From NCBI GenBank assembly GCA_046153645.1, contig JBJXGI010000060.1, positions 1 to 45,561 on the forward strand: a stretch of DNA of 45,561 nucleotides, in the 5' to 3' direction. The stretch comes from Elusimicrobiota bacterium (GTDB lineage Bacteria; Elusimicrobiota; Elusimicrobia; F11). A model generated the notes under the pieces. It did not search any database, was not told the DNA's origin, and saw only the letters and a list, made by a program, of their open reading frames with translations. Below, piece after piece: positions 6,383 to 45,561 of the stretch; position 1 is the first letter of the stretch; each line of letters opens with the position of its first letter. The translations under genes and the position numbers were made by a program.

Positions 6383-7408
6383 TTAATTATCGGTCCCGGT
6401 TTTTTTATAGATATTTAAAACAGATCCAGAGAGCGGCGGTTTTTTATCGGACTCAAGACGCTCTGTTGTTCGTCGATCTTGAAAAACAATACTTCCACCG
6501 TTTCTCTCGATAGTATGCTTAACGTAACTTTTCATCTCGGTCAGTTGCTGAATAAGAACAGGGTATTGAGTGGTCTCAATATTCTTGTCAGTGAGGAATA
6601 CAATTGAAGCAGAAACAAATTTAAATTTTTTGACATTTCCTTGGCGGTCTTTTGCTGTAATACACCCCGCTTTTAAATCTGCCTCTGAATAATAAGCCAT
6701 TATTCTTTCGTCAAAACGTTTAGCAATCCAATTAAAAACTGTTTCAGCTTTATCAGGAGTTGTCATTGAAACAAAATCGTCTCCTCCAATATGCCCGATG
6801 AAATCAGATTGATTTCCCCATCTTTTGATGCTTTGAACCAATAAATCAGCTAGAAGTCGAATAACTTTGTCTCCCTGTTTAACGCCATAAACGTCGTTAT
6901 AGGCTTTAAAATTATCCAAATCAATATAAGCAAATGACATGGGGTTTCCAGAGGCTAATCTCCGACGAGCTTCATCTTCAATTGCCAAGTTTCCAGGAAG
7001 TCCCGTTAGCGGATTATGCCCCATGTCTACTTTTTTACGTTGCAGCATTCTTTTTACACGAGCCATTAATTCCTGAGCGTCAAAAGGTTTGGTGAGAAAG
7101 TCATCAGCACCAACCTCAATAGACCGAATTCGATCCTGAGCATCCTTCCACCTTCCACTGACCATAACAATGGGAATGGCTCTCGTATGAGGGTCTTGGC
7201 GTAATTGTTCACATATTCTAAACCCATTTACACCAGGGAGTTTTAAATCTAGCACGAGCGCATCAGGAAGCATTTCTCTTACTTTATCAACGGCTAATCT
7301 CCCATCTTTTATCCATTCAACTTGATACCCAGCCAAAGTAAAAGTTAATTGAACATAAGAAGCGACTTGTTCATCATCATCAATAATTAAAATTTTTTCA
7401 CCAGCCAT
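6383..7408 (-). CDS. Response regulator with diguanylate cyclase (GGDEF-family) output domain
   Basis: REC: IIDDD, phospho-Asp in LVLDLKLP, KPF; cyclase: NPLTGLPGN, DLDNFKAYND, GGDDF. Confidence 0.92.
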   Translation of the reverse strand: MAGEKILIIDDDEQVASYVQLTFTLAGYQVEWIKDGRLAVDKVREMLPDALVLDLKLPGVNGFRICEQLRQDPHTRAIPIVMVSGRWKDAQDRIRSIEVGADDFLTKPFDAQELMARVKRMLQRKKVDMGHNPLTGLPGNLAIEDEARRRLASGNPMSFAYIDLDNFKAYNDVYGVKQGDKVIRLLADLLVQSIKRWGNQSDFIGHIGGDDFVSMTTPDKAETVFNWIAKRFDERIMAYYSEADLKAGCITAKDRQGNVKKFKFVSASIVFLTDKNIETTQYPVLIQQLTEMKSYVKHTIERNGGSIVFQDRRTTERLESDKKPPLSGSVLNIYKKTGTDN

Positions 7409-7423
7409 AGATCCTCCTAAAAC

Positions 7424-8107
7424 TTAAGCTTCTTTATTATCTTTCTTTAAAATAATAATTTCGATTCTTCGATTCGTCGCTCTGTTAATAGCAGAATCGT
7501 TTGGAACGATTGGATAATTTTCACCCATTCCCCAGGCAGATAATCTTTCATGAGGAATTCCACTTTTCGTTAATGCCTCCACAACTGAAAATGATCTTGC
7601 CGCCGACAATTCCCAATTAGAACCAAATCTTCCTCCTACAACAGGAATGTTATCCGTATGCCCTTGAACAACAACGTCACCTTCAACAAGTTTAATGAGA
7701 TTGGACAATTGCTCAAGTGCTGAAAATGCCTCCGGATCAAGAATGGCTTTGCCGCTCCCAAATAAAATTTTCTCATTTAATTGAACAACAACCTTCTCAG
7801 ATTCATTTTTAATTTGAAGTTCATTCCCAAAATTACTTTTCATTTTTTCTATATCTTCTGAAAACTGAGAGTAAGAAATATTTTCTTTTTTCAATTTATC
7901 TAAATTACTTTTAACAAGATAACTATAACCATATAAAACCAAGAAAAATATCATAAGGATGGTCATAAAGTCTGAATACGAAACAAGCCATAGGTTTTCC
8001 GATGAATAAAGACTCGTTCTTTTTGAACCGCCCAAAAAACCTAAAAAATCTTTTTTCCGAGAAAGCTCAGATTCAGCTGAAATATTACTTTCTTCACTTT
8101 CGAACAT
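7424..8107 (-). CDS. motB: MotB-family stator subunit with OmpA-like peptidoglycan-binding domain (copy 2)
   Basis: WLVSYSDFMT TM with conserved Asp; GHTDN, NWELSAARS, NRRIEI; start reassigned to ATG 8107. Confidence 0.9.
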   Translation of the reverse strand: MFESEESNISAESELSRKKDFLGFLGGSKRTSLYSSENLWLVSYSDFMTILMIFFLVLYGYSYLVKSNLDKLKKENISYSQFSEDIEKMKSNFGNELQIKNESEKVVVQLNEKILFGSGKAILDPEAFSALEQLSNLIKLVEGDVVVQGHTDNIPVVGGRFGSNWELSAARSFSVVEALTKSGIPHERLSAWGMGENYPIVPNDSAINRATNRRIEIIILKKDNKEA

Positions 8108-8759
8108 AGGGAAATTCCTTATATAAAACAATTTCAACCCTTCTATTCATCCGTCGACCAAGGTTCGTTTGATTGGATGCCCTGGGTTTATAAGGCCCGT
8201 AAGCTGCAGCCGCGATCTGCTCGGAGGGGATACCTAATTCAATGAGTTTATTAACGACAGATAAGGCACGACTCATAGAAAGCTCCCAGTTATCCTTATA
8301 ATTAATACTCCGAATGGGAACTGAATCACTATGGCCCTCGACAATAATAATTTGTTTGGATTTAACTAATGATTGCGCGATAACAGAAAATATTTCATTT
8401 GAAGATGCCTTTAATTCTGATTGAGCCGAATCAAATAAAACCTTCTCTCCAAATTCGATTCTTACATCGCCCAAACTTTGATTGACCATAACCCCTTTTT
8501 GACCACTCATATTGTTTTTTAAATCTGACGCGATATTTCCTAACAAATTAGATTTAAATTCAATGGTACTCGCAGGTTTAAACTGTTCTGCTTTAAAATT
8601 TTTTATTGCCTGAGCCAAAGCCTCATCACCAGCCACTGTAAGCCCATATAAAGAGAGAAAAACCAAAACAAGGTTCGTCATTAAATCAGCATAAATTGTT
8701 AACCAAATCCCCTCAGTGCGAGTATCTTTGACGGGAGGACGATAAAATCGGTGAAGCAT
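8094..8759 (-). CDS. motB: MotB-family stator subunit with OmpA-like domain (copy 1)
   Basis: WLTIYADLMT TM with conserved Asp; GHSDS, NWELSMSRA, NRRVEI. Confidence 0.9.
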   Translation of the reverse strand: MLHRFYRPPVKDTRTEGIWLTIYADLMTNLVLVFLSLYGLTVAGDEALAQAIKNFKAEQFKPASTIEFKSNLLGNIASDLKNNMSGQKGVMVNQSLGDVRIEFGEKVLFDSAQSELKASSNEIFSVIAQSLVKSKQIIIVEGHSDSVPIRSINYKDNWELSMSRALSVVNKLIELGIPSEQIAAAAYGPYKPRASNQTNLGRRMNRRVEIVLYKEFPYVRK

Positions 8760-8761
8760 TT

Positions 8762-9556
8762 TTATCCTTGATTGGCCGCGCCGGCACGAGAAGCAATAAC
8801 CTTGTTCTTACTTTTTCGATTCAAATACGATTCTAATCTTCTAGAAAGAATCGCCGGGCCTTCTTGTCGTTGAATTGAGAGAATAGCTTCGATCATAACT
8901 TCTTTCAAAAAAAGTTCTTGCTCAGAATAGCTTTGAAGTTTTCCAGCAATAGGAAGAAAGAGAAAGTTAGCGCCAAAAATTCCATAAAACGTAGCCGTCA
9001 TGGCCACAGCCATATGACTTCCCATGGTTCGAGGATCTGTTAAGTTCAATAACACCTCAACAACACCGACCAAGGTTCCCAATAAACCGAAAATAGGGGC
9101 ATAAGTCGCCATGTTTCTAAACACATTGGAGACTTCTTCATGACGCAGTCGAATGAAATGGATTTCTTTTTCTAAATTTGATCGGACCAAATTTTCTGGC
9201 AAACCATCGGCGATTAATTTCAGTCCATTGGCAAGAAATTGATCAGAGGTTCCTCTCATATCCAACTCTAAACTTTCCATACTGGTTCTACGGGCACGTC
9301 CCGCCAATTCAAGCATTTGGCTCATAATGCTATCAGCAGATTCTCTTCTACCAGGGAACATAAACATAACAATAGCCATGGGAATTTTTTTGATAATTGA
9401 CCAAGGATATGTAATTAAGGTTGCCCCTAATGTTCCACCAAAGACAAGAACAGCCGCATGGGTATTCATGAAAAATTTTGCAGTTTCACCATCACCTAAA
9501 ACCCAGGCCACCGCACCAAGCCCAACAAACCACCCTAAAAATGTCATTAAATCCAT
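8762..9556 (-). CDS. motA: MotA/PomA-family stator subunit
   Basis: VFGGTLGA, ARRTSMESLE, APIFGLLGTLVG, AMTATFYG, LPIAGKL; four-TM flagellar-type architecture. Confidence 0.92.
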   Translation of the reverse strand: MDLMTFLGWFVGLGAVAWVLGDGETAKFFMNTHAAVLVFGGTLGATLITYPWSIIKKIPMAIVMFMFPGRRESADSIMSQMLELAGRARRTSMESLELDMRGTSDQFLANGLKLIADGLPENLVRSNLEKEIHFIRLRHEEVSNVFRNMATYAPIFGLLGTLVGVVEVLLNLTDPRTMGSHMAVAMTATFYGIFGANFLFLPIAGKLQSYSEQELFLKEVMIEAILSIQRQEGPAILSRRLESYLNRKSKNKVIASRAGAANQG

Positions 9557-9562
9557 GATTTA

Positions 9563-11266
9563 TTATCCTTCTCCCACATTTTTCGAATCTTTTTCTCTAG
9601 AGAATTCTCCATCTTGAACAGGAAACCTTTCTTGATCCGTCCTCTTTTTCAAAAAATTACTTATTTTATTTTCAATATCGTTGCCGGGTCTTGAGGCAGA
9701 ATCAACACTAAGGGATTCTTCAAACTTCATTCCTGCTGGAAGTTTAAGCGAATGACGCAAAGAACCAGCAAGTCTTTCGGCGGGTGAAAAACTCTTTACT
9801 TCGGGGATATGGATATGCCCCTCGGCTTTTAATCTTTTGGCAATAAGCGAAATTTTCCTCTGGGCATCGGTAATTATTTTAGGAGTTAAATTCTCTGTTT
9901 TAAAACTGAGTTCATCCCGGATAATTTCAGCTTTACCTTCTGGGACATGCTCAAGAATTTTATTAACAAACAATTCATCAGATGCTCTTAAACTTAAAAT
10001 CAATGTTTGTAGATCAACTTCCCTTAAAATAGCTTTTAGCGAAGACACCTCAAACTTATCTAAATCCTCAAACAAAAATGAACGCTGCCGCATTTCCTCT
10101 GCAATCTCTGGACTGGACTCTTTCAAATTCTCCAACATATTTCGTTGCGCTTCCGGGTCTAATGACTCATAAACAGAAAACATTCTTTCAGGACCACCGA
10201 TCATATAGTCTAAACGCCTTTTTAAATCTTGCTCAATATCTTCAACTTGTTCGGGGAGAAGTTGCCTTGTTGTTGCCAATTTTGATGTTATTTCACTTTG
10301 CAAAGTAGGACTAATTTTAGACATAACTCGAATAATCCAATCAGCTGGTAAATAACCCAACACAACCGCCGCTTTTTCAGGAGATTCTTTAGAAAGTATG
10401 ACCGCTAAATTACTTATATTATCCTCACGGATAAAACCAAAAGGTAGCGTCGTCTTATTTGGATTTTCAACTTGCAATGCTCCGGAAAAATTTGTGTTCC
10501 CTCCTCCATTCCCTCCATTTGGAAGTCCATAAGATGGCGGAAAATAAGGTGGTATGAGCGGGAAAGGATCGGCCCGATTCCTCCCCGAATCTTCAGGTTT
10601 TAAAGTTGGCAAAATTTGAATCAGGTTATTGAGAAATCCGCGTAAAGGTCCAAACATAAATAACAAGCAAACAAAAACACAAAAAATAGTCAAAATCAAA
10701 ACCACAACAACCCAGTAGTTTTTTAACTCAGTTTGAATGCGATTCATAGGGGAATTATTAACGATAGGAGTGGCAGACTTATTAAACTTTGACTTCTGAA
10801 TATTAAGACTATCGCCTCTTTCAGGATCCAATCCCAAAATCTGCCTTGTCAATTCTCTTACCTTTCCCACTTCAACCTCGGGAAGACTTTCATCTAAAAC
10901 CAGGGTTACAGAAATTCTTTTTATAAATTTCTTAAAAAACTTATCTTCTGTTTTTAATGTATCAACTAAACTTTTAACTTGTTGTGAGGTTTCATTTAGA
11001 GAACTTCTATTTGGTACACCCGGCAAGAAAAAACCATCTGACTCGTCTTGGACAACCGTGTTCGGTGATGAAACCAAAGGCTCTATTCGGACAACCACGA
11101 CAAATTGATCTGGTGATAAAATTTTAGATAACACTTCTTCAACTCTCTGTTGCATCCGAACTTCGAGGTTGAGTCGCTCGCTATCCCATGAAACATCAAT
11201 TGAATAAATAAGGCCCACAAAAACAAAGGGTGCGATCACTAAAAAAGAAAAAAGTTTACGGAACAC
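9563..11266 (-). CDS. FliF C-terminal ring domain (RBM3) fused through a TM helix to FliG middle and C-terminal domains
   Basis: FliF-like LEVRMQQRVEEVLSKIL..FVVVVRIE and IKRISVTLVLD..ILGLDPERGDSLNIQKSKF; TM; FliG-like LSKESPEKAAVVLGYLP, GG linker, FLFEDL, AILREVDLQTLILSLR, KAEIIRDEL, DAQRKI; GTG start at 11266 after GGGGG SD. Confidence 0.85.
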   Translation of the reverse strand: MFRKLFSFLVIAPFVFVGLIYSIDVSWDSERLNLEVRMQQRVEEVLSKILSPDQFVVVVRIEPLVSSPNTVVQDESDGFFLPGVPNRSSLNETSQQVKSLVDTLKTEDKFFKKFIKRISVTLVLDESLPEVEVGKVRELTRQILGLDPERGDSLNIQKSKFNKSATPIVNNSPMNRIQTELKNYWVVVVLILTIFCVFVCLLFMFGPLRGFLNNLIQILPTLKPEDSGRNRADPFPLIPPYFPPSYGLPNGGNGGGNTNFSGALQVENPNKTTLPFGFIREDNISNLAVILSKESPEKAAVVLGYLPADWIIRVMSKISPTLQSEITSKLATTRQLLPEQVEDIEQDLKRRLDYMIGGPERMFSVYESLDPEAQRNMLENLKESSPEIAEEMRQRSFLFEDLDKFEVSSLKAILREVDLQTLILSLRASDELFVNKILEHVPEGKAEIIRDELSFKTENLTPKIITDAQRKISLIAKRLKAEGHIHIPEVKSFSPAERLAGSLRHSLKLPAGMKFEESLSVDSASRPGNDIENKISNFLKKRTDQERFPVQDGEFSREKDSKNVGEG

Positions 11267-12203
11267 GAATTCCCCCTGTTTTAGTTCCATATAGGAATTT
11301 TCGTAAACTGTCGTTATTGGGTTCCAATTGGAGGGCTTTTGTCCAAATTTGTTTTGCCTTCTCTCGTTCGTTCATTGCAAAATAAGCTGATCCAAGGCGG
11401 GTGAGAGCAAGAACATTTTCCGGTTCCAAATCTAAAACATCTGTACACTCTGAAATCGCAGTGAGATATCTCCCCTCGTAAATAGATTCAAGAGAGACCT
11501 GCAATTTATGCTCAACCAAAGTAATACCCGAGGGAACTCGAGGCGTGTCAACTTCCGGGTGTTCATTTTCAACAAGACGCATCAATCGTGAAAATTCAAC
11601 TCGTTCGATTTTTTTATCTGAGGCATATATCAATGTATTTAATGAGCGTTTGGGATCATTTTCCAAGAAATGCGTAACGGCCAAACGAAAAAGACGTGAG
11701 TCTAATGACTCCCCCAATTCCGCTTCGGTAATGGGGTTAATCGCCTCTAACTTTCTACGAATCACTTTGATGGAATTATCTTGTGGAATTAATCTCTCCG
11801 CATTTCGAAAGGTTTCAAGAGAAAATTGATACTGCCCATCACGATACTCTCCCACGCCCTTATTATAAAATTGAGTCGCTTTACTTTGGGATTCAGAGGC
11901 TCTTAATTGCTGTTGTTTTTCTTCTAAAATAAGTCGTGATCTTTCAGTTTCTAAATCAACAACATTTAAACCCATGGGCTTATAATTATCGATTAATCTG
12001 TCTAACTCAATTATTCTCTCATGGAGATTTAAACCGTTACCAACTTTTTGTCGATAAGCAGCAACTTCTTTATCTAATTCTTCTTTAAGGGAGGGCAAAA
12101 TATTTTCCGCAGAATCCCAACTCCACCCTATTATTGTTGATGGATTTAAGATTGCAAAAAACATGCTGAAAAATAAGACTGTTTTTAACGCCGGTCTAAT
12201 CAA
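11256..12203 (-). CDS. Exported tetratricopeptide-repeat protein, first gene of the motor operon
   Basis: N-terminal signal-like segment; TPR repeats FYNKGVGEYRDGQYQFSLETFRNAERLIP and ALTRLGSAYFAMNEREKAKQIWTKALQLEP; SD GAGGAG. Confidence 0.85.
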   Translation of the reverse strand: MIRPALKTVLFFSMFFAILNPSTIIGWSWDSAENILPSLKEELDKEVAAYRQKVGNGLNLHERIIELDRLIDNYKPMGLNVVDLETERSRLILEEKQQQLRASESQSKATQFYNKGVGEYRDGQYQFSLETFRNAERLIPQDNSIKVIRRKLEAINPITEAELGESLDSRLFRLAVTHFLENDPKRSLNTLIYASDKKIERVEFSRLMRLVENEHPEVDTPRVPSGITLVEHKLQVSLESIYEGRYLTAISECTDVLDLEPENVLALTRLGSAYFAMNEREKAKQIWTKALQLEPNNDSLRKFLYGTKTGGIRVP

Positions 12204-12333
12204 CCTGACACTCCTCTCAAAACGTAAAGTCCTCTACGTATTTAGGTCAACTTAGGCGTAATTGCAACCTGTTTTTAGAGATGTTTCTGACTCTATTCTG
12301 AAGAAAACTGAAATAAGACTTTAATGGAAGGAC

Positions 12334-12372
12334 AAAAAAAACCCAAAAACATAAAAAATGTTTTTGGGTTTT
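12334..12372 (-). terminator. Intrinsic terminator after leuB
   Basis: Perfect 15-bp inverted repeat AAAACCCAAAAACAT/ATGTTTTTGGGTTTT with 5-nt loop and U tract on the minus strand. Confidence 0.8.
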
Positions 12373-12393
12373 AATAATTAAAATTAAAAAAAA

Positions 12394-13479
12394 TTAAACT
12401 AAAGAAGCGACAAAATCCCCCATTTCAGAGGTAGACAAACCCATTTTACCAGCAGCTAAACTTTTTATTTTTCCGGATTGGAGCGCTTTATAAACAGCAT
12501 TCTCAATGTCAGAGGCTGCTTTAGGTTGGCCAATTTCATCCAACATCATTCCGGCTGCGCAAATAGCAGCTAAAGGATTAATAATGTTTTGACCCGTATA
12601 CTTTGGCGCAGAACCGCCAATTGGTTCAAACATGGAAACACCTTCTGGGTTTAGGTTTCCACCAGCAGCAATACCCATCCCGCCTTGAATCATGGCTCCC
12701 AAATCGGTAATGATATCTCCGAACATATTATCGGTGACAATCACATCAAAGAATTCAGGATTTTTTACCATCCACATACAAGTAGCATCAACATGAGCAT
12801 AATCGGGCTTAATTTCCGGAAAATCTTTAGCGACCTCATAAAAAGCTCTTTCCCACATGTCAAAAGCATAAGTTAACACGTTGGTTTTTCCACAAAGAGT
12901 CAGCATCTTTTTTTTATTTCTTTTTTTAGTGAAATTAAAAGCATATCGAAGGCATCTTTCGGCTCCCATACGAGTATTAATGGATTCTTGAACCGCCACT
13001 TCATGCGGTGTTCCTTTTCTTAAAAATCCTCCTGCTCCCGCATATAAACCTTCGGTATTTTCTCGAACCACAACAAAATCAATATCCTCAGGCTTTTTAT
13101 TGGCGAGGGGTGTTTCAACATTTGGGAATAATTTAACCGGTCTTAAATTAATATATTGATCTAATTCAAATCGAAGTCTTAACAACAACCCTTTTTCCAA
13201 AATACCAGGTTTCACTTGAGGGTGCCCAATAGCTCCTAAAAACATGGAGTCCACTTTTCGAAACTCCGCCAAAACTGAATCGGGCAAAATTTCACCTGAC
13301 TTTAAAAATCTTTCTCCACCCAAGTCATAATTCACATACTCTAATTTAAAATTGTTCTTTTTTGAAACCGTATTGAGAACTTTTAAACCTTCTCTGACAA
13401 CTTCAGGTCCCGTTCCATCTCCTGGCAAAACAGCAATTTTGTAACTTGATTTTGGTTCTTTTTTTACAACTTGACTCAT
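12394..13479 (-). CDS. leuB: 3-isopropylmalate dehydrogenase
   Basis: LPGDGTGPEV, NLRP, VRENTEGLY, DNMFGDIITD, FEPIGGSAP; leu/ilv context. Confidence 0.9.
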   Translation of the reverse strand: MSQVVKKEPKSSYKIAVLPGDGTGPEVVREGLKVLNTVSKKNNFKLEYVNYDLGGERFLKSGEILPDSVLAEFRKVDSMFLGAIGHPQVKPGILEKGLLLRLRFELDQYINLRPVKLFPNVETPLANKKPEDIDFVVVRENTEGLYAGAGGFLRKGTPHEVAVQESINTRMGAERCLRYAFNFTKKRNKKKMLTLCGKTNVLTYAFDMWERAFYEVAKDFPEIKPDYAHVDATCMWMVKNPEFFDVIVTDNMFGDIITDLGAMIQGGMGIAAGGNLNPEGVSMFEPIGGSAPKYTGQNIINPLAAICAAGMMLDEIGQPKAASDIENAVYKALQSGKIKSLAAGKMGLSTSEMGDFVASLV

Positions 13480-14000
13480 TTGTATTCGTCCTTTTTTTCT
13501 AAATATTTTTTCAGAAAATCGTCTAATGTTGGCCCAAAGGTCTCGTGAATAGAGTCCAAAGTTTGTTCATGCGCTTTATCAATGGGGTGATCGTCAAGAT
13601 ATCGTTCAACTTCAAAGAATTTATTTTCCCTATATATAGAACTTCCATTTGTAGACCCCAAATCTTTAACAAGTAAAATGGATCCCAATAAAATAAATTT
13701 AAGATGTTGACGAGAAACAATCGCATGCATAATTTTTATGGTACTTTCAGAAGTTCTTCCAAGAACACTAGGAATACTTTGGGTAATCTTTCCTACCAAC
13801 GTTAACTCACCATTATCCATATCAATCGTATGGATAAGTCGATCTTCTCCTGCCGCGATAATAGATAAATAAATCCCATGCCCCTGACCAAAACAAAAAA
13901 CAATATTATCGGAATCATCAGATTTCACCGCATAATAAAGATGAGGCCGAAATGGAACCCAGGCATCCTCAGTAATATTTTTAGGAATAAAAACGGACAA
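13476..14000 (-). CDS. FHA-domain protein
   Basis: LGR..., VSRQH, DLGSTNGS phosphothreonine-binding motifs. Confidence 0.8.
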   Translation of the reverse strand: MSVFIPKNITEDAWVPFRPHLYYAVKSDDSDNIVFCFGQGHGIYLSIIAAGEDRLIHTIDMDNGELTLVGKITQSIPSVLGRTSESTIKIMHAIVSRQHLKFILLGSILLVKDLGSTNGSSIYRENKFFEVERYLDDHPIDKAHEQTLDSIHETFGPTLDDFLKKYLEKKDEYK

Positions 14001-38004: not shown

Positions 38005-39045
38005 GTGAAAAAAATTCCCATTCATTCGATTGTTTCTACTCTTTTATTACTCACTTTTTTATCTGGTGCGGCTTATTCAGAATCAATGAAACCTGTCTTC
38101 TTGATAAGCAAAGATGACCTTAATCTTATTCAAGAACGCCAACGCCTCTATAGATTAGGGATGAAAATTCAGCACGAAATTCCTCCCCGGATTATTATGG
38201 GAGAAATCCCTTCTAGTTTAAATACAAATTTATTAGCTCCTTTGAATATCTACACGAGCCCCATCGCAATTGCAGTGGTAGAACCATTAGGACCTATAGC
38301 TATTTCAGGAGCTTTAGAATGGAATAAAAAACTATTAAATTCTTCCCAAAAAATTGGGACCGCTAGTTTTAACGTCATGAAATCATTGGTATCACAAAAA
38401 TCTTTCCCTGGACCCGAAAATTTAGCTTGGAAAAACGAAACCGACTATTGGATATTGAATTGGGAAACGACCAGTAAACCCATATATTTTGAGATTCAAG
38501 GAGCACCGGACGCTTCTTTTAACAACATCACCTATCGAACCAAAACGAATTTAAATTCTTTGCTGATTCCATTTCCTTTACAAGGGAATAATCTCGCTGC
38601 GGTTTATTACAGGGTTCGATCTATTGACCGTCCCAATCCAAATAATCCTTCAGAAGAAATGAACGGAATGTGGTCTCAATTAACCTCCCCTTCTCCACAA
38701 ACTTTACCCAATCAAAATACCAACGTTTCCCCCTCTCTAACATCACCCGTTAATGGCTATCAATCAGAAGGTTTTACCATTAATCTTGAATGGACTTCTT
38801 CTCAGAGATCACGTATCCAAATCGCTGAAGATTCAAAATTCTCAAACATTTTGATAGACCAAATGGCGTTAGATGGCGAGTTTTTTATCCCCAACACGGT
38901 TTTTATTTCAGGTAAAAATTATCATTGGCGTGTATCGAACTGGTCCCTTCAACAAAGCCCATGGAGTGATTCCCGGTCATTTTGGGTGGGAGAACCAAAA
39001 CAAAACTATACAGATATGTTTGTAAACCCCGAGGCCCCCAAATGA
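38005..39045 (+). CDS. Exported hypothetical protein with fibronectin-III/Ig-like domains
   Basis: Signal peptide ending AAYS; PSLTSP.NG...LEW...IQIAEDSKFSN...YHWRV...WSDSRSF pattern; probable GTG start 38005; overlaps next gene (ATGA). Confidence 0.7.
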   Translation: MKKIPIHSIVSTLLLLTFLSGAAYSESMKPVFLISKDDLNLIQERQRLYRLGMKIQHEIPPRIIMGEIPSSLNTNLLAPLNIYTSPIAIAVVEPLGPIAISGALEWNKKLLNSSQKIGTASFNVMKSLVSQKSFPGPENLAWKNETDYWILNWETTSKPIYFEIQGAPDASFNNITYRTKTNLNSLLIPFPLQGNNLAAVYYRVRSIDRPNPNNPSEEMNGMWSQLTSPSPQTLPNQNTNVSPSLTSPVNGYQSEGFTINLEWTSSQRSRIQIAEDSKFSNILIDQMALDGEFFIPNTVFISGKNYHWRVSNWSLQQSPWSDSRSFWVGEPKQNYTDMFVNPEAPK

Positions 39046-40511
39046 GAAAAGGGCTTTTAACTTTAGCGCTCATGGTTTTTCTCAAATCATTTAGCCACGC
39101 AGGCATTCATGCTGTCGGATTAGATAAAACCCAATATACGAGTGACTTTATGATAGGAAAAGTCGCCGTATGCATTATTTTCCCAGAGTCCAATGGTGGA
39201 CAAGATGCAAACACAGAAACCTGGAGCGATGACCGAAAATCGCAAGTTATTTCAGAAATTATGTCAGGCCTTGATTGGTGGACAAAACAAAACCCTCGTT
39301 CTCATTTAAGTTTCACCTACATAACAAAAACAATTGCAACTAAATATGAGCCCATCGCTCGTCCTTATTATGATGAGGCGCTTTGGATCCCAGACATCAT
39401 GAGCAAAATTGGTTACACAGGCGGACGGTTTACCGCCACAAGAAATTTTAATAACGCGTTAAGAGACGAGTATGGAACCAACTGGGCTTTCACTATTTTT
39501 ATCGTTGATAGCTTAAATGACACCAATGGTAAATTCGCAGATGGCCTTTTTGCTTATGCCTATCTCGGTGGTCCTTTTTTAGTGATGACTTATGATAACA
39601 ACGGTTACGGCATAACGAACATGGATGTAGTTGCAGCCCATGAAACAGGCCACATATTCAATGCCCTAGATCAATACGCCGGAGCCAGTTCTCCCAATGA
39701 CTTCTCTATTGGATATTTTCAAACCATTAATGGGAACCATTCCTATTCCTCTACAGCCAATGAGCCCTCATCAATTATGCGGGGTGGAATTCGTTGGGGG
39801 TTAGATAGTTGGGCAAAACAAATGGTAGGGTGGAGAGATTCCAATAACAATAATTTAGATGATCTTATCGACCCACAGCCTACTTTTCAACTTTCATCAA
39901 GTCCAAGTCAATCAGGCAACGGAAATAATTCGTTTTCAGGCGCTGCTTCTGTGAGTGTGCTTCCAAGACAGGGCAATACCCAAGGAAAAGGGCTAACATT
40001 AGATACGGTGTCCAAAGTTGAATACAAAATAAACAACAATGATTGGCAACAAGCTGTCCCCGCAGATGGGATTTTTGATAGCGCACAAGAGTCATTCCAA
40101 ATTAATATTCCAGCCTCTACAACGCTGGGGGCTCAAAATGTTCAAGCAAGTGATTTAACTTTAAGAATTTCGACTTTTTATCAGTCAAACCCTGGAACGA
40201 GTACTCATGGTGGAGGCGGATCTCCATCGAACTTAAATGACGCGCATGCCTATCCCAACCCATTCAAACCAAACTCATCACTGGGGCACGTTGATATTAC
40301 TTTCACTGGTCTTACCAATGGTTCAAAGGTTCAAGTTTTCTCCCCCGCAGGTGAACCTGTCTTCGAAGGAATAGTGGTACCCGCGTCCCATACGCTCCAA
40401 TGGAGGGCCATTAACGATAATGGAACGGCTCTCTCAAGCGGCGTCTACTATTATCTCATCACAGATGATGCAGGAAATAAAAAGAAAGGAAAAATTGCCG
40501 TTATTAGATAA
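39042..40511 (+). CDS. Exported zinc metalloprotease (metzincin-like) with T9SS type-A-like/FlgD-Ig C-terminal domain
   Basis: Signal peptide; HETGHIFNALD and Met-turn SIMRG; C-terminal AYPNPF...SGVYYYLI...KGKIAVIR. Confidence 0.82.
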   Translation: MRKGLLTLALMVFLKSFSHAGIHAVGLDKTQYTSDFMIGKVAVCIIFPESNGGQDANTETWSDDRKSQVISEIMSGLDWWTKQNPRSHLSFTYITKTIATKYEPIARPYYDEALWIPDIMSKIGYTGGRFTATRNFNNALRDEYGTNWAFTIFIVDSLNDTNGKFADGLFAYAYLGGPFLVMTYDNNGYGITNMDVVAAHETGHIFNALDQYAGASSPNDFSIGYFQTINGNHSYSSTANEPSSIMRGGIRWGLDSWAKQMVGWRDSNNNNLDDLIDPQPTFQLSSSPSQSGNGNNSFSGAASVSVLPRQGNTQGKGLTLDTVSKVEYKINNNDWQQAVPADGIFDSAQESFQINIPASTTLGAQNVQASDLTLRISTFYQSNPGTSTHGGGGSPSNLNDAHAYPNPFKPNSSLGHVDITFTGLTNGSKVQVFSPAGEPVFEGIVVPASHTLQWRAINDNGTALSSGVYYYLITDDAGNKKKGKIAVIR

Positions 40512-40743
40512 ACCGTCATATCAACTTCGTCATCAATTTATCATTAACAATTTACTCATAGCATTAATCAAAACACATCTAAAAGAAAGCCTGTTTTTTA
40601 GTTATCCCCCGCAAATAACGAAATAGTTAGTAAAGATTGTCGCAAGTTTATCACTAGGGTCTTAGCAATTTCCGCACTTAACTTTCTTATCCAAGCCTCG
40701 CTTAAGTCACCAATCTGTCATTGGTCACCGTTAGTCTTAAGCC

Positions 40744-41649
40744 ATGAGAAAGTTAGCGTTCATCATCATGAGCTTGGGTCTGGCGGGCAGTGTGCAAGCC
40801 GCTGGGACAAGCTCCGCCCAGTTCCTTAAATTGGGTGCGGGTGCAAAAGCTGCGGCCTTGGGTGAAGCCGCCGTTTCAGTAACCGATGATGTGACAGCCG
40901 CATATTGGAATCCCGCAGGACTATCAAAAGTAGAATCAACTGAATTGGCACTGATGCAAAATTCCTATTTAGTGGATACGAATTATCAGTATGCCGGGTT
41001 GGCTCTTCCAACGAGAAACTACACTTTTGCGTTCTCGTTTTATCGAATGGATTATGGTTCGATTGATAGTTATAACGCTTCCAATGTGAAACAAGGCAGT
41101 TTTAATGCTGGTTCTATGGCGGGCAGCATTTCATTAGCTAAAAAATTAAGTGACTCTGCTTCTATGGGAATGTCTCTTAAATACATATCTGAATCCATTG
41201 AAAACGAAAGCGGAACCGCTTTTGCCGCTGATTTTGGCGGAATAATGAAAGTATCCCGGTTTTCTATCGGAGCTTCCATTCAAAACTTAGGATCCAGCAT
41301 TAAGTTTGTTAAAGAAAGTGAAGATCTCCCACTCACAATTCGATTGGGCGCCTCAACACAATTTTTTAATGAAAAGTTAACTGGTGCTTTTGACATTTCA
41401 AAAGCCAGAGATAACGAAGCGACATTCCATACCGGCCTTGATTATAAATTACTCTCAATCGTCAGTTTAAGAGCGGGTTATCAAGTAACACCTGGCAATA
41501 GCTTAAATATTGATGGCATCACTAACATTAGTGGCGGAATGGGTATTAGTTTAAAAAACTTCAACATCGACTATGCGGTATCTCCTTTTGGAGATTTAGG
41601 CATGGCTCATCGAATTAGCCTCAAGTACAAATTCGCTGCTCGTGAATAA
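40744..41649 (+). CDS. PorV/PorQ-like (UPF0164) outer-membrane beta-barrel protein
   Basis: Signal peptide; FLKLGAGAKAAALGEA...AAYWNPAGL; IDYAVSPFGDLGMAHRISL.YKF terminus. Confidence 0.87.
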   Translation: MRKLAFIIMSLGLAGSVQAAGTSSAQFLKLGAGAKAAALGEAAVSVTDDVTAAYWNPAGLSKVESTELALMQNSYLVDTNYQYAGLALPTRNYTFAFSFYRMDYGSIDSYNASNVKQGSFNAGSMAGSISLAKKLSDSASMGMSLKYISESIENESGTAFAADFGGIMKVSRFSIGASIQNLGSSIKFVKESEDLPLTIRLGASTQFFNEKLTGAFDISKARDNEATFHTGLDYKLLSIVSLRAGYQVTPGNSLNIDGITNISGGMGISLKNFNIDYAVSPFGDLGMAHRISLKYKFAARE

Positions 41650-41728
41650 TTTGTATTGAACGAAACCTGCCTTACCTCCTTCATGAACCTATAGCAACTT
41701 GGGTTAAGTGAGTGATCCATTTTTTTAC

Positions 41729-41757
41729 TTGAATCAACACCACCTTCCCGTTAGAAT
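41729..41757 (+). promoter_or_regulatory. Sigma70-like promoter upstream of the attC-like site
   Basis: TTGAAT-17 bp-TAGAAT. Confidence 0.55.
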
Positions 41758-41798
41758 CCCCATATGCAACAACATCCTCTGACCCGCGGAGCGGCTTC

Positions 41799-41859
41799 GT
41801 CTAACATGTTTTATCCGCCATGCCTCTCGGCACATCGGATAAAACACTATTTGTTGGAC
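41799..41859. mobile_element. attC-like integron recombination site (61 bp)
   Basis: RYYYAAC (GTCTAAC) and GTTRRRY (GTTGGAC) ends enclosing an 11-bp perfect inverted repeat TGTTTTATCCG/CGGATAAAACA and an inner TGCC/GGCA hairpin. Confidence 0.6.
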
Positions 41860-41888
41860 CGCTGATTAGAAGTGCTGTGGGGGGAGGC

Positions 41889-42812
41889 ATGATAAAGACG
41901 TTCGTTATCGCGAGTATTTTTGGAGTGTGCTCGTCATTGGCGTTCGGGCAAGACAAAAATAGGTCAGGAGCGTTATCTAACCGGTTTATCGATGAGGATG
42001 CCAATGTCCTTTTTTATTATCCAAATGACTACTCGGTAACCAAAGAGGGCGTCTCCATGCATTTATCAGGAGATGGAATCTGTGAATTCGATTTTCAGAG
42101 AATCGTGGAGAAAGATATTTCCGGTTTCAAACAGGAGGCATCCGATTTTGCGCGTGTACTGATGGCTGATGGCCCGGGTACAACGTTGACTACTCAGATC
42201 ATTAGCGAGCGTGAGCTAGCAATGAGGTCGGGTATTTTTGGAACCGAATACTCTTTGGTTTTCGTTTGTTCGGGTGATTGTGAGAATTATAAGTTGGAAG
42301 ATGGCTTCGACGCTAAGAAGCCTATTTCTATCTATGTTTTCGGCATTCCGCAGCGATGTGGATTTAGCTTAATTCGATTTGGCGGCGAAGCCAGGACGAC
42401 GGTTTCACGTGAGACCCTTTTCAAAATATTTGAAACCATCGGACAAGGTCACCCAGATAAATGGGTGGCAGAAGCATTAGCCCCATCTCCTTCCTGGTCT
42501 GATTTCTTTAGACGTTATCAACGGTACGGTTACTGTGATGACAACGATACTCAACTTTCATTTTCTCGATCAGCATCTCTCATTTTTACGCAGCAGTGGG
42601 ACCAAATATCTTACGTGCGAAATTCGAAATTGGCAGACCCCTCTTCGTTTAAATTTGTGCTTAGGCATATTGACGCGACATGGAGCGCAGATTCTCTCAA
42701 CCAACTAAGGTCCAATGCAGAAACGAATTGCTTAGACAGATTATTCTATGGGGAGATTTGCGAAAAACTTAAAGAGGCAGCTGAAGCGGCGATAGCCGTA
42801 AAGCGGAAGTGA
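41889..42812 (+). CDS. Exported hypothetical protein, probable gene-cassette cargo
   Basis: SD GGGGAGG then ATG 41889; signal peptide ending AFG; several Cys; visibly more GC-rich than neighbours. Confidence 0.7.
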   Translation: MIKTFVIASIFGVCSSLAFGQDKNRSGALSNRFIDEDANVLFYYPNDYSVTKEGVSMHLSGDGICEFDFQRIVEKDISGFKQEASDFARVLMADGPGTTLTTQIISERELAMRSGIFGTEYSLVFVCSGDCENYKLEDGFDAKKPISIYVFGIPQRCGFSLIRFGGEARTTVSRETLFKIFETIGQGHPDKWVAEALAPSPSWSDFFRRYQRYGYCDDNDTQLSFSRSASLIFTQQWDQISYVRNSKLADPSSFKFVLRHIDATWSADSLNQLRSNAETNCLDRLFYGEICEKLKEAAEAAIAVKRK

Positions 42813-43066
42813 TGGTGGCAGCGCGGCCCGACAAGCGGGGATAGAACCTGCGTCATAATTATTTTTCCGATGAGGAATGAAGCAAAGCAGACAAAGTTTT
42901 AGTGTGAAAGTGGCGAGTGGTTTTTATTTTTTCTTCATCTAACGCATCAACATCAGAAACCTCATCTCATTACGCCTGAACCAAACCCTGAACCCCGAGA
43001 ATCGAGTGTAGATAAGGGGTCAAGTCTCGACATGCGACTCTCAAAATCTTGATTTTTTACTTTTAG

Positions 43067-43094
43067 TTGACTTATCGTTTTCGCCTGCTAAAAT
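43067..43094 (+). promoter_or_regulatory. Sigma70-like promoter
   Basis: TTGACT-16 bp-TAAAAT with extended -10 TG. Confidence 0.55.
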
Positions 43095-43140
43095 ACACTC
43101 CCCTCAAAATAATGGCCCCGCCAGAAAAGGGAGAACTCAA

Positions 43141-43449
43141 ATGAAAGAAAAATATGTGACAGAAAAGCTGTTCTTGGAAACGAGAAAGGAAATAGACGAA
43201 CGGTTTGAGCAGGTGGATCAGCGTTTTGATGAACTTGATCAAAAAGTAAATCGAATTGCCTTATCTCTCGTTAAAACGCAGGAAGAAGTGAAAGAAATCC
43301 GAGAAACCATGGCCACAAAAAGTGATATTCAAAAAGTTTTAGATACAGTTGAGGCATTTGCCACTAGTACCGCCAGCTTAGATAGAAGCGCCATTATTCA
43401 TGAATACCGCTTATCTCTACTTGAAAAACATTGCGGGGTTAATAAATAA
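43141..43449 (+). CDS. Small coiled-coil hypothetical protein
   Basis: Heptad repeats IDERFEQ-VDQRFDE-LDQKVNR, MATKSDI; SD AGGGAG. Confidence 0.75.
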   Translation: MKEKYVTEKLFLETRKEIDERFEQVDQRFDELDQKVNRIALSLVKTQEEVKEIRETMATKSDIQKVLDTVEAFATSTASLDRSAIIHEYRLSLLEKHCGVNK

Positions 43450-43636
43450 TATTCAGAAGTACTTCCTTTTTCAAAACAGGCAGTATGTCGAAATATCCCC
43501 CCAATAACTTTTATTAAACCTAAAGTTAACAACCGAAATGAAGTTCTCTTTTTTTAGCTGAGAATACAATACGTTTTTGGTGTGAATTATTGGTGACAGC
43601 CTTGAATTTAACCATAAAACCCCCCACACTTAGAAC

Positions 43637-45205
43637 ATGAAGTCAACAGCAGAATTCAAGTTCATAAAATTAATGGCCTTCGGCGTGTTCCTGATCAAAG
43701 GAGTATTTGCTTCTTTTGATCCACTTCCCGTTGGTGGACGGGCGGCTGGAATGGGAGAAGCCTATTCTGCTATTGCTGACGATATTTACGCACTTTATTA
43801 TAACCCCGCCGGAATTCTTCAAATTAATCGACCAGAGTTTGGTACTTATTATTCTCAACTATACCCTGGTTTAACTGACAGCTCTAAGATTTCTCGAATG
43901 TATATTGGTTATGGCCAACCATTTGGGAAAAACGGCAAACATGGCGGTATTGGCGTTAGTTATCTGTCTCTAGGCCTCCCTAGCCTTTATAAAGAAGAAG
44001 CCTTTGGACTGACCTATGGTTATGAATACCGACATTTATGGAATTTTGGGACAACAGTTAAATTACTGAGGAAACAAATTGGGTCTGACAACTACACCAG
44101 TAACGCGATTGATCCTATTACTGGAAACAGCACTGGATCACCTGATCCTTTATTAGCTAAATCTAAAAGCGCTTCAGGAATTGGTCTTGATTTAGGCTTT
44201 CAATATAGACTTACCAGCGCTTACGCACTAGGTCTTGTCGCGAGAAACATCAACAATCCCAGTCTTTCTATTGCCGATGGAGGAGACAAAGCCTCTTCCG
44301 TTTACAGTGCCGCGTTGGCACGAAAATTGCGAAAAGGATCATTGAACCTGGAAATAACACAATGGAAAACAATCGACAGTAATCTCAAATTATCCTTAGG
44401 TGGAGAACATTGGTTCAAAAATGGTTTTGGACTTCGAGCCGGTGGAAGCTTTGGGAATCGAAACCTTTCAAACATAAGCTTTGGCAGTTCATATAAAATG
44501 GAATCTTTCCAACTTGATTATGCGGCTATTTTGCCTCTTCAAGGGATCGAGGGGACCCTTGGAATTCAACAAGTATCTTTAACCGTGAGATTGGGTAAAC
44601 CACCTGTAGATGCTCTTGAAGTACAATTATTAAAAGAAAAAGAAGATCGTATTCGAGCTGAGAGTGAAGCGCGCTATGCAAAAGCGGAAAGTGATCGATT
44701 AAAAGCTCAACTTTATGCATTAACTGAAGCCAAATCACAGGCACAAAAAGAAATTGAGAAACAAGCAGCTCAAAAAACACTCGATGAAGCCAGACAAGCA
44801 GAAAAAGCAAGAACACTGAAAAATCAAAATATTGAATCTGATAAAGTTATTTTTAATTCTTATACCAATGCCCTAGCAGAATACAATTCTAAAGTTTCTG
44901 ATGGTATAAGCCTTTCAGATAAACGAAAAATACTAGAGAAGATACAAAATGATTTCGCTGGTAAAGGGGTAGATACTTCTACCATCATAAGAGAACTGAG
45001 AAATTTAAAAATAGAAGAATCTAAATCAAAAAAAGACTTTGATCTATCGTTGAGTTTCTATCAACGGCTTGCACAACAAGGAGCATCAATAGAAGAACGC
45101 AAAGGAATGTTAGATAGAATTATCCAAAAATACAAAGGATCAGGCGTTGATGTTTCAGAAGCAGAAAAAGAAATGAAAACTCTTTCAGAAGGGAAGTCTA
45201 ATTAA
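43637..45205 (+). CDS. PorV/PorP-like beta-barrel with C-terminal coiled coil and a tandem helical repeat
   Basis: GGRAAGMGEAY..IADD..ALYYNPAG N-terminus; barrel ends QLDYA...QQVSLTVRLG; then charged coiled coil and two ~50-aa repeats. Confidence 0.82.
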   Translation: MKSTAEFKFIKLMAFGVFLIKGVFASFDPLPVGGRAAGMGEAYSAIADDIYALYYNPAGILQINRPEFGTYYSQLYPGLTDSSKISRMYIGYGQPFGKNGKHGGIGVSYLSLGLPSLYKEEAFGLTYGYEYRHLWNFGTTVKLLRKQIGSDNYTSNAIDPITGNSTGSPDPLLAKSKSASGIGLDLGFQYRLTSAYALGLVARNINNPSLSIADGGDKASSVYSAALARKLRKGSLNLEITQWKTIDSNLKLSLGGEHWFKNGFGLRAGGSFGNRNLSNISFGSSYKMESFQLDYAAILPLQGIEGTLGIQQVSLTVRLGKPPVDALEVQLLKEKEDRIRAESEARYAKAESDRLKAQLYALTEAKSQAQKEIEKQAAQKTLDEARQAEKARTLKNQNIESDKVIFNSYTNALAEYNSKVSDGISLSDKRKILEKIQNDFAGKGVDTSTIIRELRNLKIEESKSKKDFDLSLSFYQRLAQQGASIEERKGMLDRIIQKYKGSGVDVSEAEKEMKTLSEGKSN

Positions 45206-45219
45206 AAAAGTACAATACG

Positions 45220-45561
45220 ATGAAAATGAATAAAGCACTCATATTTATAGGACTTTCGATTCTTATATCTCCCATGGGAATTTCTTCCAGTCAATCTATA
45301 GGCGGAGTGGTTCTAACGGATGTAGCGCCACGTATTGTAACGCCCAATGGCGACGCATTAAATGACGTTGTATTTTTCAAGTTTGACTCTAACCTCGCAG
45401 GGATCCCAATAGAAAGTCAAATCGTTGATATTTCAGGAGCGAAAGTAGCAAATCTTGAATTCAATTCGAATGAAACTGCGCTTTTATGGAATGGAAAAGA
45501 TACTTCGGGCAATATTGTTCCGGCAGGAATCTATATTTATTCCATCATCATAGGAAAGAAA
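45220..45561 (+). CDS. Partial ORF: signal peptide followed directly by a T9SS type-B-like (CHU_C/FlgD-Ig) domain
   Basis: Hand translation MKMNKALIFIGLSILISPMG...PRIVTPNGDALNDVVFF...LLWNGKDTSGNIVPAGIYIY; open to window end. Confidence 0.82.
   Translation, partial: MKMNKALIFIGLSILISPMGISSSQSIGGVVLTDVAPRIVTPNGDALNDVVFFKFDSNLAGIPIESQIVDISGAKVANLEFNSNETALLWNGKDTSGNIVPAGIYIYSIIIGKK

Follow-up and report, generated by a model that had tools for sequence, protein, structure and literature searches.

The 45,561-nucleotide contig JBJXGI010000060.1 of an uncultured Elusimicrobiota bacterium (GenBank assembly GCA_046153645.1), referred to here in its entirety as the window, carries an operon in which a natural fusion of parts of the flagellar proteins FliF and FliG lies beside flagellar-type stator genes. 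The gene order is tetratricopeptide repeat (TPR) protein, fusion, MotA, MotB, a second MotB (MotB') and a receiver/GGDEF protein, with spacings of -11, +6, +2, -14 and +15 nt, and the GC content of the operon is that of the genome average. The first-pass annotation described the fusion itself as a single-chain rotor, and missed the adjacent MotA, MotB and MotB' genes that make it a motor candidate, as well as the loss of the residue equivalent to Arg281 of the FliG torque helix and a full flagellar cluster elsewhere in the genome. The features of the operon and of the fusion are as follows.

12338..12372, minus strand: intrinsic-terminator-like hairpin of 15 pairs that closes the upstream leucine/phospholipid genes, the upstream border of the operon (consensus match)
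11256..12203, minus strand: TPR protein with signal peptide, 315 amino acids, putative periplasmic partner (Pfam TPR)
9563..11266, minus strand: FliF(RBM3)–transmembrane (TM) helix–FliG(M,C) fusion, 567 amino acids, GTG start
11201..11266, minus strand: probable cleaved Sec signal peptide, residues 1-22 (judged from hydropathy and homologue N-termini, with no predictor run)
10781..11194, minus strand: putative periplasmic RBM3, residues 25-162, with a 63-residue insert carrying a conserved LPGVP motif (Pfam, models, structure search)
10652..10711, minus strand: predicted single TM helix, residues 186-205 approximately, followed by a conserved FGPLR amphipathic helix (models, hydropathy)
10442..10603, minus strand: Pro/Gly-rich, predicted disordered linker that replaces the FliF C-tail and FliG-N (models, composition)
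10208..10411, minus strand: FliG middle domain, with ESPE at the EHPQ position (Pfam, alignment)
9806..10132, minus strand: FliG C-terminal domain with torque helix (Pfam, alignment)
8762..9556, minus strand: MotA of flagellar type, Arg90 and Glu98 equivalents kept, beginning 6 nt past the fusion stop (Pfam, NCBIfam, alignment)
8094..8759, minus strand: MotB no. 1, plug/TM with conserved Asp, and OmpA-like peptidoglycan-binding domain (Pfam, alignment)
7424..8107, minus strand: MotB no. 2 (MotB'), same architecture, Asp kept; ATG at 8107, reading frame open to 8137 (Pfam, alignment)
6383..7408, minus strand: response regulator with receiver and GGDEF-like (GGDDF) domains, the last gene of the operon (Pfam, NCBIfam)

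Architecture of the FliF–FliG fusion

The fusion reading frame is intact; the GTG at 11266 has AGGGGG 6 nt upstream, and the mechanically called frame extends to an ATG at 11290. Pfam identifies YscJ_FliF_C at residues 90-161 (29.2 bits against a cut-off of 23.8), FliG_M at 286-353 (E 1.4e-10) and FliG_C at 379-487 (E 1.6e-20). There is no Pfam match to RBM1/2 (YscJ_FliF), the FliF model TIGR00206 scores 28 bits against a cut-off of 129.75, and a FliG_N match below cut-off (22.3 bits, residues 296-384) overlaps FliG-M and is not a separate domain. The earlier view that there is no room for RBM1/RBM2 or FliG-N thus stands, as only 34 residues lie upstream of RBM3 and the linker is predicted to be disordered. 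The family is uniform in this respect, with more than 100 upstream residues in only 3 of 196 members; this set combines fusion frames of more than 430 amino acids from the loci described below with distant representatives of 430-800 amino acids, and may contain duplicates.

A search of the predicted model against 48,161 solved chains identifies residues 25-162 as FliF RBM3 (8z5v, Z 14.1, rmsd 1.8, 94 residues aligned; 6scn, Z 13.8), with weaker matches to SpoIIIAG (Z 8.7), to chain 2y9j_Y of the Salmonella needle complex (8.5) and to EscJ (8.4); Foldseek concurs. Profile and fold therefore agree on the N-terminal domain, and together with the models they confirm the proposed succession of RBM3, TM helix, Pro/Gly linker, FliG-M and FliG-C in one chain. 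AlphaFold2 models built from 46 and 150 sequences (mean pLDDT 74.7 and 78.3; pTM 0.37 and 0.49) predict a confident ring-building core and FliG domains, a TM helix and a disordered linker, at a pTM too low to bear on how the domains pack. Residues 222-275 of the linker are 33% Pro/Gly, and its span from the conserved Pro207 to Phe276 is 50-99 residues in 189 of the 196 members; the 80-residue C-terminal tail is mostly of low model confidence.

The first-pass annotation listed a signal or TM segment ahead of RBM3 and a TM helix behind it. The second is upheld, a single hydrophobic segment being present between RBM3 and FliG-M in 189 of 196 members, and the first is better described as a probable cleaved signal peptide: Ala-rich cleavage-like sites are seen at the N-termini of many homologues (by eye, in 25 alignment rows), and the mature fusion is probably single-pass, since its N-terminal hydrophobic stretch resembles a Sec signal peptide. 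With Sec export, RBM3 would face the periplasm, a single helix would cross the inner membrane and FliG-M/C would remain on the cytoplasmic side. An open lumen, which had also been suggested, is unsupported, as a ring with one TM helix from each subunit would close around lipid or a partner, with no sign of a pore.

Salmonella RBM3 alone assembles into rings (PMC8786727), and by analogy the fusion subunits may polymerize into a ring. Complex prediction with three RBM3 copies (residues 23-165, 150-row alignment) gave 0.15 against a mark of 0.42, a result that counts neither way. A shortened beta-collar was considered and ruled out, the segment at the collar position being 63 residues long in the fusion and 61 in this genome's own FliF.

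Distribution, ancestry and gene neighborhoods

The homologue search returned 59 proteins from 8000 candidates scored, and 46 of these cover 85-99% of the fusion at 48-56% identity; all ten close-homologue loci are from Elusimicrobiota. Among 88 more distant representatives for which Pfam families were shown, FliG_C is present in all 88, FliG_M in 87 and YscJ_FliF_C in many, and one is a FliM-FliG protein of a different kind. A profile search of a 5.8-billion-sequence set with a wide alignment gave 60 matches, nearly the same close relatives, and 176 records from a plasmid collection held canonical FliG matches only, none covering 80% of the query. ESM Atlas labels list look-alike clusters in Cloacimonadota, Bdellovibrionota, Bacteroidota, Balneolota, Myxococcota and others, a lead toward spread beyond Elusimicrobiota that consists of labels and not of loci examined. 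Four DNA sequencing runs from one study yielded short contigs at ~99% identity that show no joints or indels, but none of them spans the gene; these may derive from the same source and were not used. No RNA run was listed as containing the sequence.

A profile built from the 46 homologues matches 103 of 301 Elusimicrobiota genomes, often several times each, these including one genome (G104) that holds only canonical FliG and some weak matches of unchecked full length. FlhA is present in 6 of the 301 genomes and absent from 99 of the 103 family-positive ones; MotA, in contrast, is found in 111 of the 301 and in 101 of the 103. FliM exceeds its cut-off in 3 of 80 family-positive genomes tested and is absent from the other 77, and RBM1/2-bearing FliF does so in the same three; the 80 were chosen by hand from the 103, and as draft genomes and their kin they were given no statistic. 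These patterns bear out the earlier proposals that the inferred ring does not enclose a type III export apparatus and, probably, that it does not switch. The fusion and MotA are nearly missing together from family f2 (0 and 1 of 88 genomes, respectively) and family f14 (1 and 0 of 89). Most symbiotic Elusimicrobiota are likely non-motile (10.1101/2022.07.08.499144), and the small genomes of f2 and f14 suggest that these are the symbiotic lineages in question.

The genome under study, 99.7% complete in 105 contigs, is an exception among carriers in having FlhA and FliM, along with flagellar FliF and FliG. Its contig C58 has a complete flagellar cluster encoding FliF, FliG, FliM, FliN, FlhA, FliL, MotA and MotB, and a paralogous operon at C81:1861-12563 encodes a PorV-barrel-TPR protein, a 648-residue fusion with C-terminal TPRs, FlbD, MotA, MotB and two long charged proteins of 583 and 1080 amino acids without Pfam matches, giving three rotor/stator sets in this one cell. 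Flagellated bacteria commonly have more than one stator set, and this, with the full flagellar cluster, might recommend the fusion as an accessory or alternative flagellar part, such as a second stator set or a hybrid MS/C ring. We consider this very improbable, and largely refuted for the family: the cluster on C58 has its own FliF, FliG, MotA, MotB and FliL, FlhA is missing from nearly all carriers, including both other members of this genome's family (G148 and G281), and three flagellated genomes carry only canonical FliG.

The family profile scores 157.7 bits with Thermotoga maritima FliG and 57 with this genome's flagellar FliG, and in a FliG-M/C tree 30 fusions are split from 11 canonical FliGs by a branch with SH-aLRT 100 (a quick tree without outgroup). 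Because of these scores and this split the fusion is not a recent copy of the local flagellar fliG; its FliG-M/C form an old, separate lineage. In an uncultured genome in 105 contigs, a fusion with altered canonical motifs might be suspected of being the decaying remnant of a flagellum or a product of faulty assembly, and the first-pass annotation had itself mentioned a sequencing artefact. Such an origin is scarcely credible and is refuted by the conservation seen, in the 46 near-full-length homologues, the gene order kept across both classes, the existence of two old paralogous operon types, and the branch that separates the fusions from flagellar FliG.

The neighborhood was read in 72 loci (the window, the ten close-homologue loci, the C81 operon, and 60 picked among the 150 profile matches listed), of which one duplicate was dropped to leave 71. 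A TPR-class gene is present in 65 of the 71 and MotA in 57, directly downstream of the fusion in 36; two MotB genes occur in 33, a coiled-coil-like protein (CC4) in 30, a large protein with a FlgD_ig/CTD-type end in 26, and FlbD in 22. Two locus types can be distinguished. Type A, that of the window, comprises a TPR or PorV-TPR protein, the fusion, MotA, MotB and MotB', and type B, that of the C81 operon, a large fn3/BNR/FlgD_ig protein, a PorV-TPR protein, a fusion with a TPR tail, long coiled-coil-like proteins, FlbD, MotA and MotB. They separate in a quick tree, with type A on one side of a branch at 82 and 33 of 34 type B rows at 98. We note that in one locus (L066; G071 C78) the MotA-MotB-MotB' block is inverted relative to the fusion and still adjacent to it.

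The TPR protein of the window matches residues 380-585 of the protein encoded at C81:1861-3639 (phmmer E 1.2e-25), which itself scores 108 bits with NCBIfam PorV_fam (cut-off 90); it is a homologue of the TPR region at the C-terminus of the PorV/PorQ-barrel-TPR protein found at this position in most relatives. An ESM Atlas search with the TPR protein returned generic TPR clusters only. At the other end of the operon, the receiver/GGDEF gene is found at the same position in the six window-type relatives whose contigs extend that far. Three related receiver-GGDEF proteins are encoded in this genome, at 6383-7408 of the window (variant GGDDF), at C69:9506-11263 and on the flagellar contig at C58:6429-7421.

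The terminator scan gave 7 sites against 5.4 expected, and the hairpin at the operon's upstream border is singled out only by its position and length; the promoter scan (9 sites against 15 expected) was uninformative. Elsewhere on the minus strand of the window, a Rieske protein and a long cytochrome b (461-2618) directly follow rplK-rplA, an order repeated in the loci of four relatives, and a small FHA-domain gene (13476-14000) lies between leuA and leuB.

A proposed stand-alone motor and its contact residues

By the tests run the fusion is not a flagellar component, and it most likely works like the flagellar rotor-stator core. Our tentative reading is that it forms, in a single piece, the rotor subunit of a non-flagellar motor that is driven by ions, stands alone and acts on outer-membrane partners. 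Its parts deserve different degrees of confidence: a stator-coupled non-flagellar ring is highly plausible and productive rotation reasonably so, while the suggestion that the output is the movement of surface adhesins through the TPR protein and a PorV-like barrel, for surface motility or attachment, is offered with reserve.

In the proposed mechanism, subunits placed across the inner membrane by Sec export, with RBM3 in the periplasm and FliG-M/C in the cytoplasm, would form a ring through RBM3-RBM3 and FliG-M/C contacts, after the manner of FliF and FliG. The stator of MotA, MotB and MotB', held on peptidoglycan through OmpA-like domains, would conduct ions and cog the rim of FliG-C. Without FliM and FliN such a ring should turn one way, and the receiver/GGDEF protein would tune it, if anything does. 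By way of the TPR protein, motion of the periplasmic face would reach a PorV-like barrel in the outer membrane together with the large surface protein held there, most likely moving surface adhesins; this relay, in which the neighborhood is observed and binding and function are presumed, is the weakest step.

The fusion has both the M and C armadillo domains of FliG, the GG hinge (Gly357 conserved in 188 and Gly358 in 187 of 196 members) and an MFxF-type motif. In its torque helix, Gly444 occupies the Arg281 position with Lys445 adjacent, and Asp451/Glu452 correspond to Asp288/Asp289. In the flagellum, the MotA-Arg90 and FliG-Asp289 pair positions the stator, and the MotA-Glu98 and FliG-Arg281 pair weighs more for torque (PMC4030992). 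The Asp289 position is Glu in 140 of 196 members, as in the fusion itself, the MotA Arg90 position is Lys or Arg in 56 of 57 loci, both channel prolines are kept in all 57, and the ion-binding Asp is kept in 75 of 86 MotBs. As judged from the alignments, the stator-positioning pair is conserved and the torque pair altered.

The fusion has ESPE where this genome's flagellar FliG carries EHPQ, the FliM-facing motif of FliG (PMC7505661). The first-pass annotation was correct about this change, and exact EHPQ occurs in none of the 196 members (His in one). As proof that FliM is not bound, the change is weakened by the absence of the exact motif from 6 of 11 canonical FliG controls, and because only 5 of the 11 keep it, the lack of FliM in the genomes is the better evidence against switching. 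Three flagellated Elusimicrobiota (L135, L136 and L137; family f4) have FliGs of canonical length with ESPG, EIPG or ELPA at this position and no fusion in their genomes.

Several observations weigh against the motor reading. At the Arg281 position, 163 of 196 members have Gly and 2 have Arg, whereas all 11 canonical FliGs have Arg; MotA position 98 is Gln in 31 and Glu in 22 of 57 loci; and in 9 of 32 two-MotB loci Asn or Ser replaces the Asp of the second MotB. The collar region is modeled in both predictions as coil or helix (pLDDT 45-62) and not as strands. No MotA is found in 14 of 71 loci, and reading further downstream found it in 1 of 13, the genomes of the MotA-less loci carrying MotA elsewhere; no rod, bushing or filament homologue was noticed in the loci. 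In the window, the gene upstream of the fusion encodes no barrel, nor is there a neighboring gene for a large surface protein, and the step to an outer-membrane output consequently rests on relatives. Finally, the kin are not independent and the loci were picked from the top of the match list.

Loss of the Asp from the second MotB hints at an asymmetric stator with one working site. In the window's own subfamily Lys445 is invariant (46/46) and MotA position 98 is acidic in all ten loci checked, which suggests a possible shifted contact; these members form one clade and thus represent one event. Co-variation of the torque-helix Lys with MotA Glu98 (10/10 against 10/44) was for the same reason discounted as a sign of co-evolution.

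The altered torque pair, with the positioning pair kept, is what might be expected of a ring that hardly turns, if at all, to which stators dock and which senses load or surfaces, or acts as a scaffold in the envelope, signaling through the receiver/GGDEF protein. The frequent loss of Asp from the second MotB, the lack of any encoded axial structure, and the presence of a receiver-domain gene in 27 of the 72 loci are in keeping with such a role. We regard it as rather improbable, however, as the whole of FliG-M/C, the GG hinge and the MotA channel prolines are conserved beyond the needs of a dock, this genome's flagellar MotA likewise has Gln at position 98, and the GGDEF motif is the variant GGDDF, with putative activity only.

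Possible output of the proposed motor and comparison with known systems

The genome also encodes components that resemble a type IX secretion system. A SprA/Sov-like protein of 1801 amino acids (C100:33154-38559; 7155-12560 in locus L122) matches TIGR04189 with E 1.5e-25 and 88.7 bits against a cut-off of 200, without any PDB sequence match, and jackhmmer finds 23 PorV-like and 16 CTD-like reading frames, often in adjacent pairs. Pairs of genes for a CTD-bearing protein and a PorV/PorQ-family barrel lie at 38982-45561 of the window, on the plus strand. The SprA-like gene adjoins two genes resembling lptF/lptG (by eye from sequence), and the PorV-barrel/CTD-like set includes a reading frame of ~8,730 amino acids at C79:12501-38693. 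GldM and GldN exceeded their cut-offs in 0 of 80 genomes each, in a search of these two only and with no positive-control genome in the set.

These components raise the alternative that the same rotary motor powers the SprA/PorV-like system, in the place of GldLM, so that certain large cargo is exported or positioned. The PorV-TPR and large CTD-type genes that flank many fusions would accord with this, as would the lack of GldM and GldN matches, were it not that searches lacking a positive control leave their absence unestablished. The SprA-like gene is, moreover, present in 261 of 301 genomes of the phylum, including 86 of 88 in f2 and 52 of 89 in f14, the families that lack the fusion and MotA. 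The translocon therefore needs no such motor generally; an obligatory type IX motor is rejected, and cargo export is in our estimation unlikely. The motor is at most an add-on to the SprA-like system, lost where genomes are small, and this pattern of loss agrees, indirectly, better with a role in surface motility or attachment than with one in core secretion.

The presence of many motAB, flbD and fliG homologues in non-flagellated Elusimicrobiota, with an enigmatic role, was reported by Uzun et al. (10.1101/2022.07.08.499144). These orphan genes, identified by KEGG labels, are very likely the same as the fusion-operon genes, one of our loci (L013) coming from their DUR003 genome; their main text contains no FliF RBM3 fusion, operon structure, residue analysis or rotor model, and their supplements may list the genes. 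The open-access literature, which excludes most subscription papers, yielded no description of the fusion or operon, and the accessible text of PMC7031533 and PMC12204202 has nothing on this module. The fusion operons account for the orphan fliG/motAB labels through which genomes without a flagellum seem to encode motility. Outside the flagellum, FliG and flagellar-type MotAB are not known to be partners, and a conserved, self-contained rotor-stator operon in ~100 flagellum-less genomes would demonstrate that the core generating torque can exist by itself. How the motor of the flagellum came to be combined with type III export, a long-standing question, would become testable on a living system, and the operon would offer a four-gene minimal rotary motor for reconstitution.

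Artificial fusions provide a parallel. A Salmonella deletion fusion that lacks the FliF tail and FliG-N still rotates, its C-ring being smaller and clockwise-biased (PMC6445934), and FliF-FliG fusions form rings in non-motile hosts (PMC6079021; Vibrio FliFG, PMC11481574). The Salmonella and Vibrio constructs likewise join FliF to FliG-M/C without the FliF tail and FliG-N, but, as described, they retain RBM1/2, the two TM helices and FliM/N, along with the remaining flagellar parts. The natural FliF-FliG fusion of the Chlamydiaceae (Bergeron 2016, PMC4768692) resembles ours in occurring in non-flagellated bacteria and in lacking FliG-N; it is ~330 amino acids long and injectisome-linked, with an RBM2-like part, no SpoIIIAG-like RBM3 and a FliG-M-like region only, and no FliG-C or stator is described in that account. 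It is nearly the complementary half of the fusion reported here. The sporulation-channel ring protein SpoIIIAG shares a lone RBM3-like domain and one membrane anchor (Z 8.7), but has no FliG and no stator, and the domain of the fusion is clearly nearer FliF (Z 14).

The gliding motor of Bacteroidota is a 5:2 ion motor that moves surface adhesins. The type IX/gliding machinery (GldLM, GldKN, SprA, PorV) has its likeness here in SprA-like, PorV/PorQ-family and CTD-type proteins, often in the same operon, and differs in that the fusion system would have a MotAB motor with an inner-membrane FliG rotor. The operon does not resemble the other 5:2 motors (Tol, Ton, Agl and Zorya), in which a TolQ/ExbB-type A subunit goes with a TolR/ExbD-type B subunit or a TonB/TolA force transducer: its A and B subunits best match flagellar MotA/MotP/PomA and MotD/MotB in NCBIfam, a search that did not include Zorya models, and both B subunits carry MotB_plug and OmpA domains.

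The flagellar motor core (FliF MS-ring, FliG, MotA5B2, FlbD/SwrD) shares with the fusion system the RBM3 fold, FliG-M/C, flagellar-type MotA and MotB with plug and OmpA domains, an Arg90/Asp289-type pair, and the FlbD found in a subset of loci. The fusion departs from it in being one chain without RBM1/2 or FliG-N and with Gly at the Arg281 position, and most of its carriers lack FliM/N, export gate, rod and filament; two different MotBs and TPR/PorV-like partners are further differences. With some hesitation, we suggest that these differences may define a separate class of rotary machine, in which a one-protein FliF-FliG rotor and a MotA/MotB/MotB' stator with two unlike B subunits are coupled through TPR/PorV proteins, so that type IX-like surface proteins are spun or carried along. 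Should rotation and output be confirmed, this would be a new machine class, a third way of building an ion-driven surface motor and a living model of a rotor and stator without an export apparatus, possibly derived from the module that came before the flagellum.

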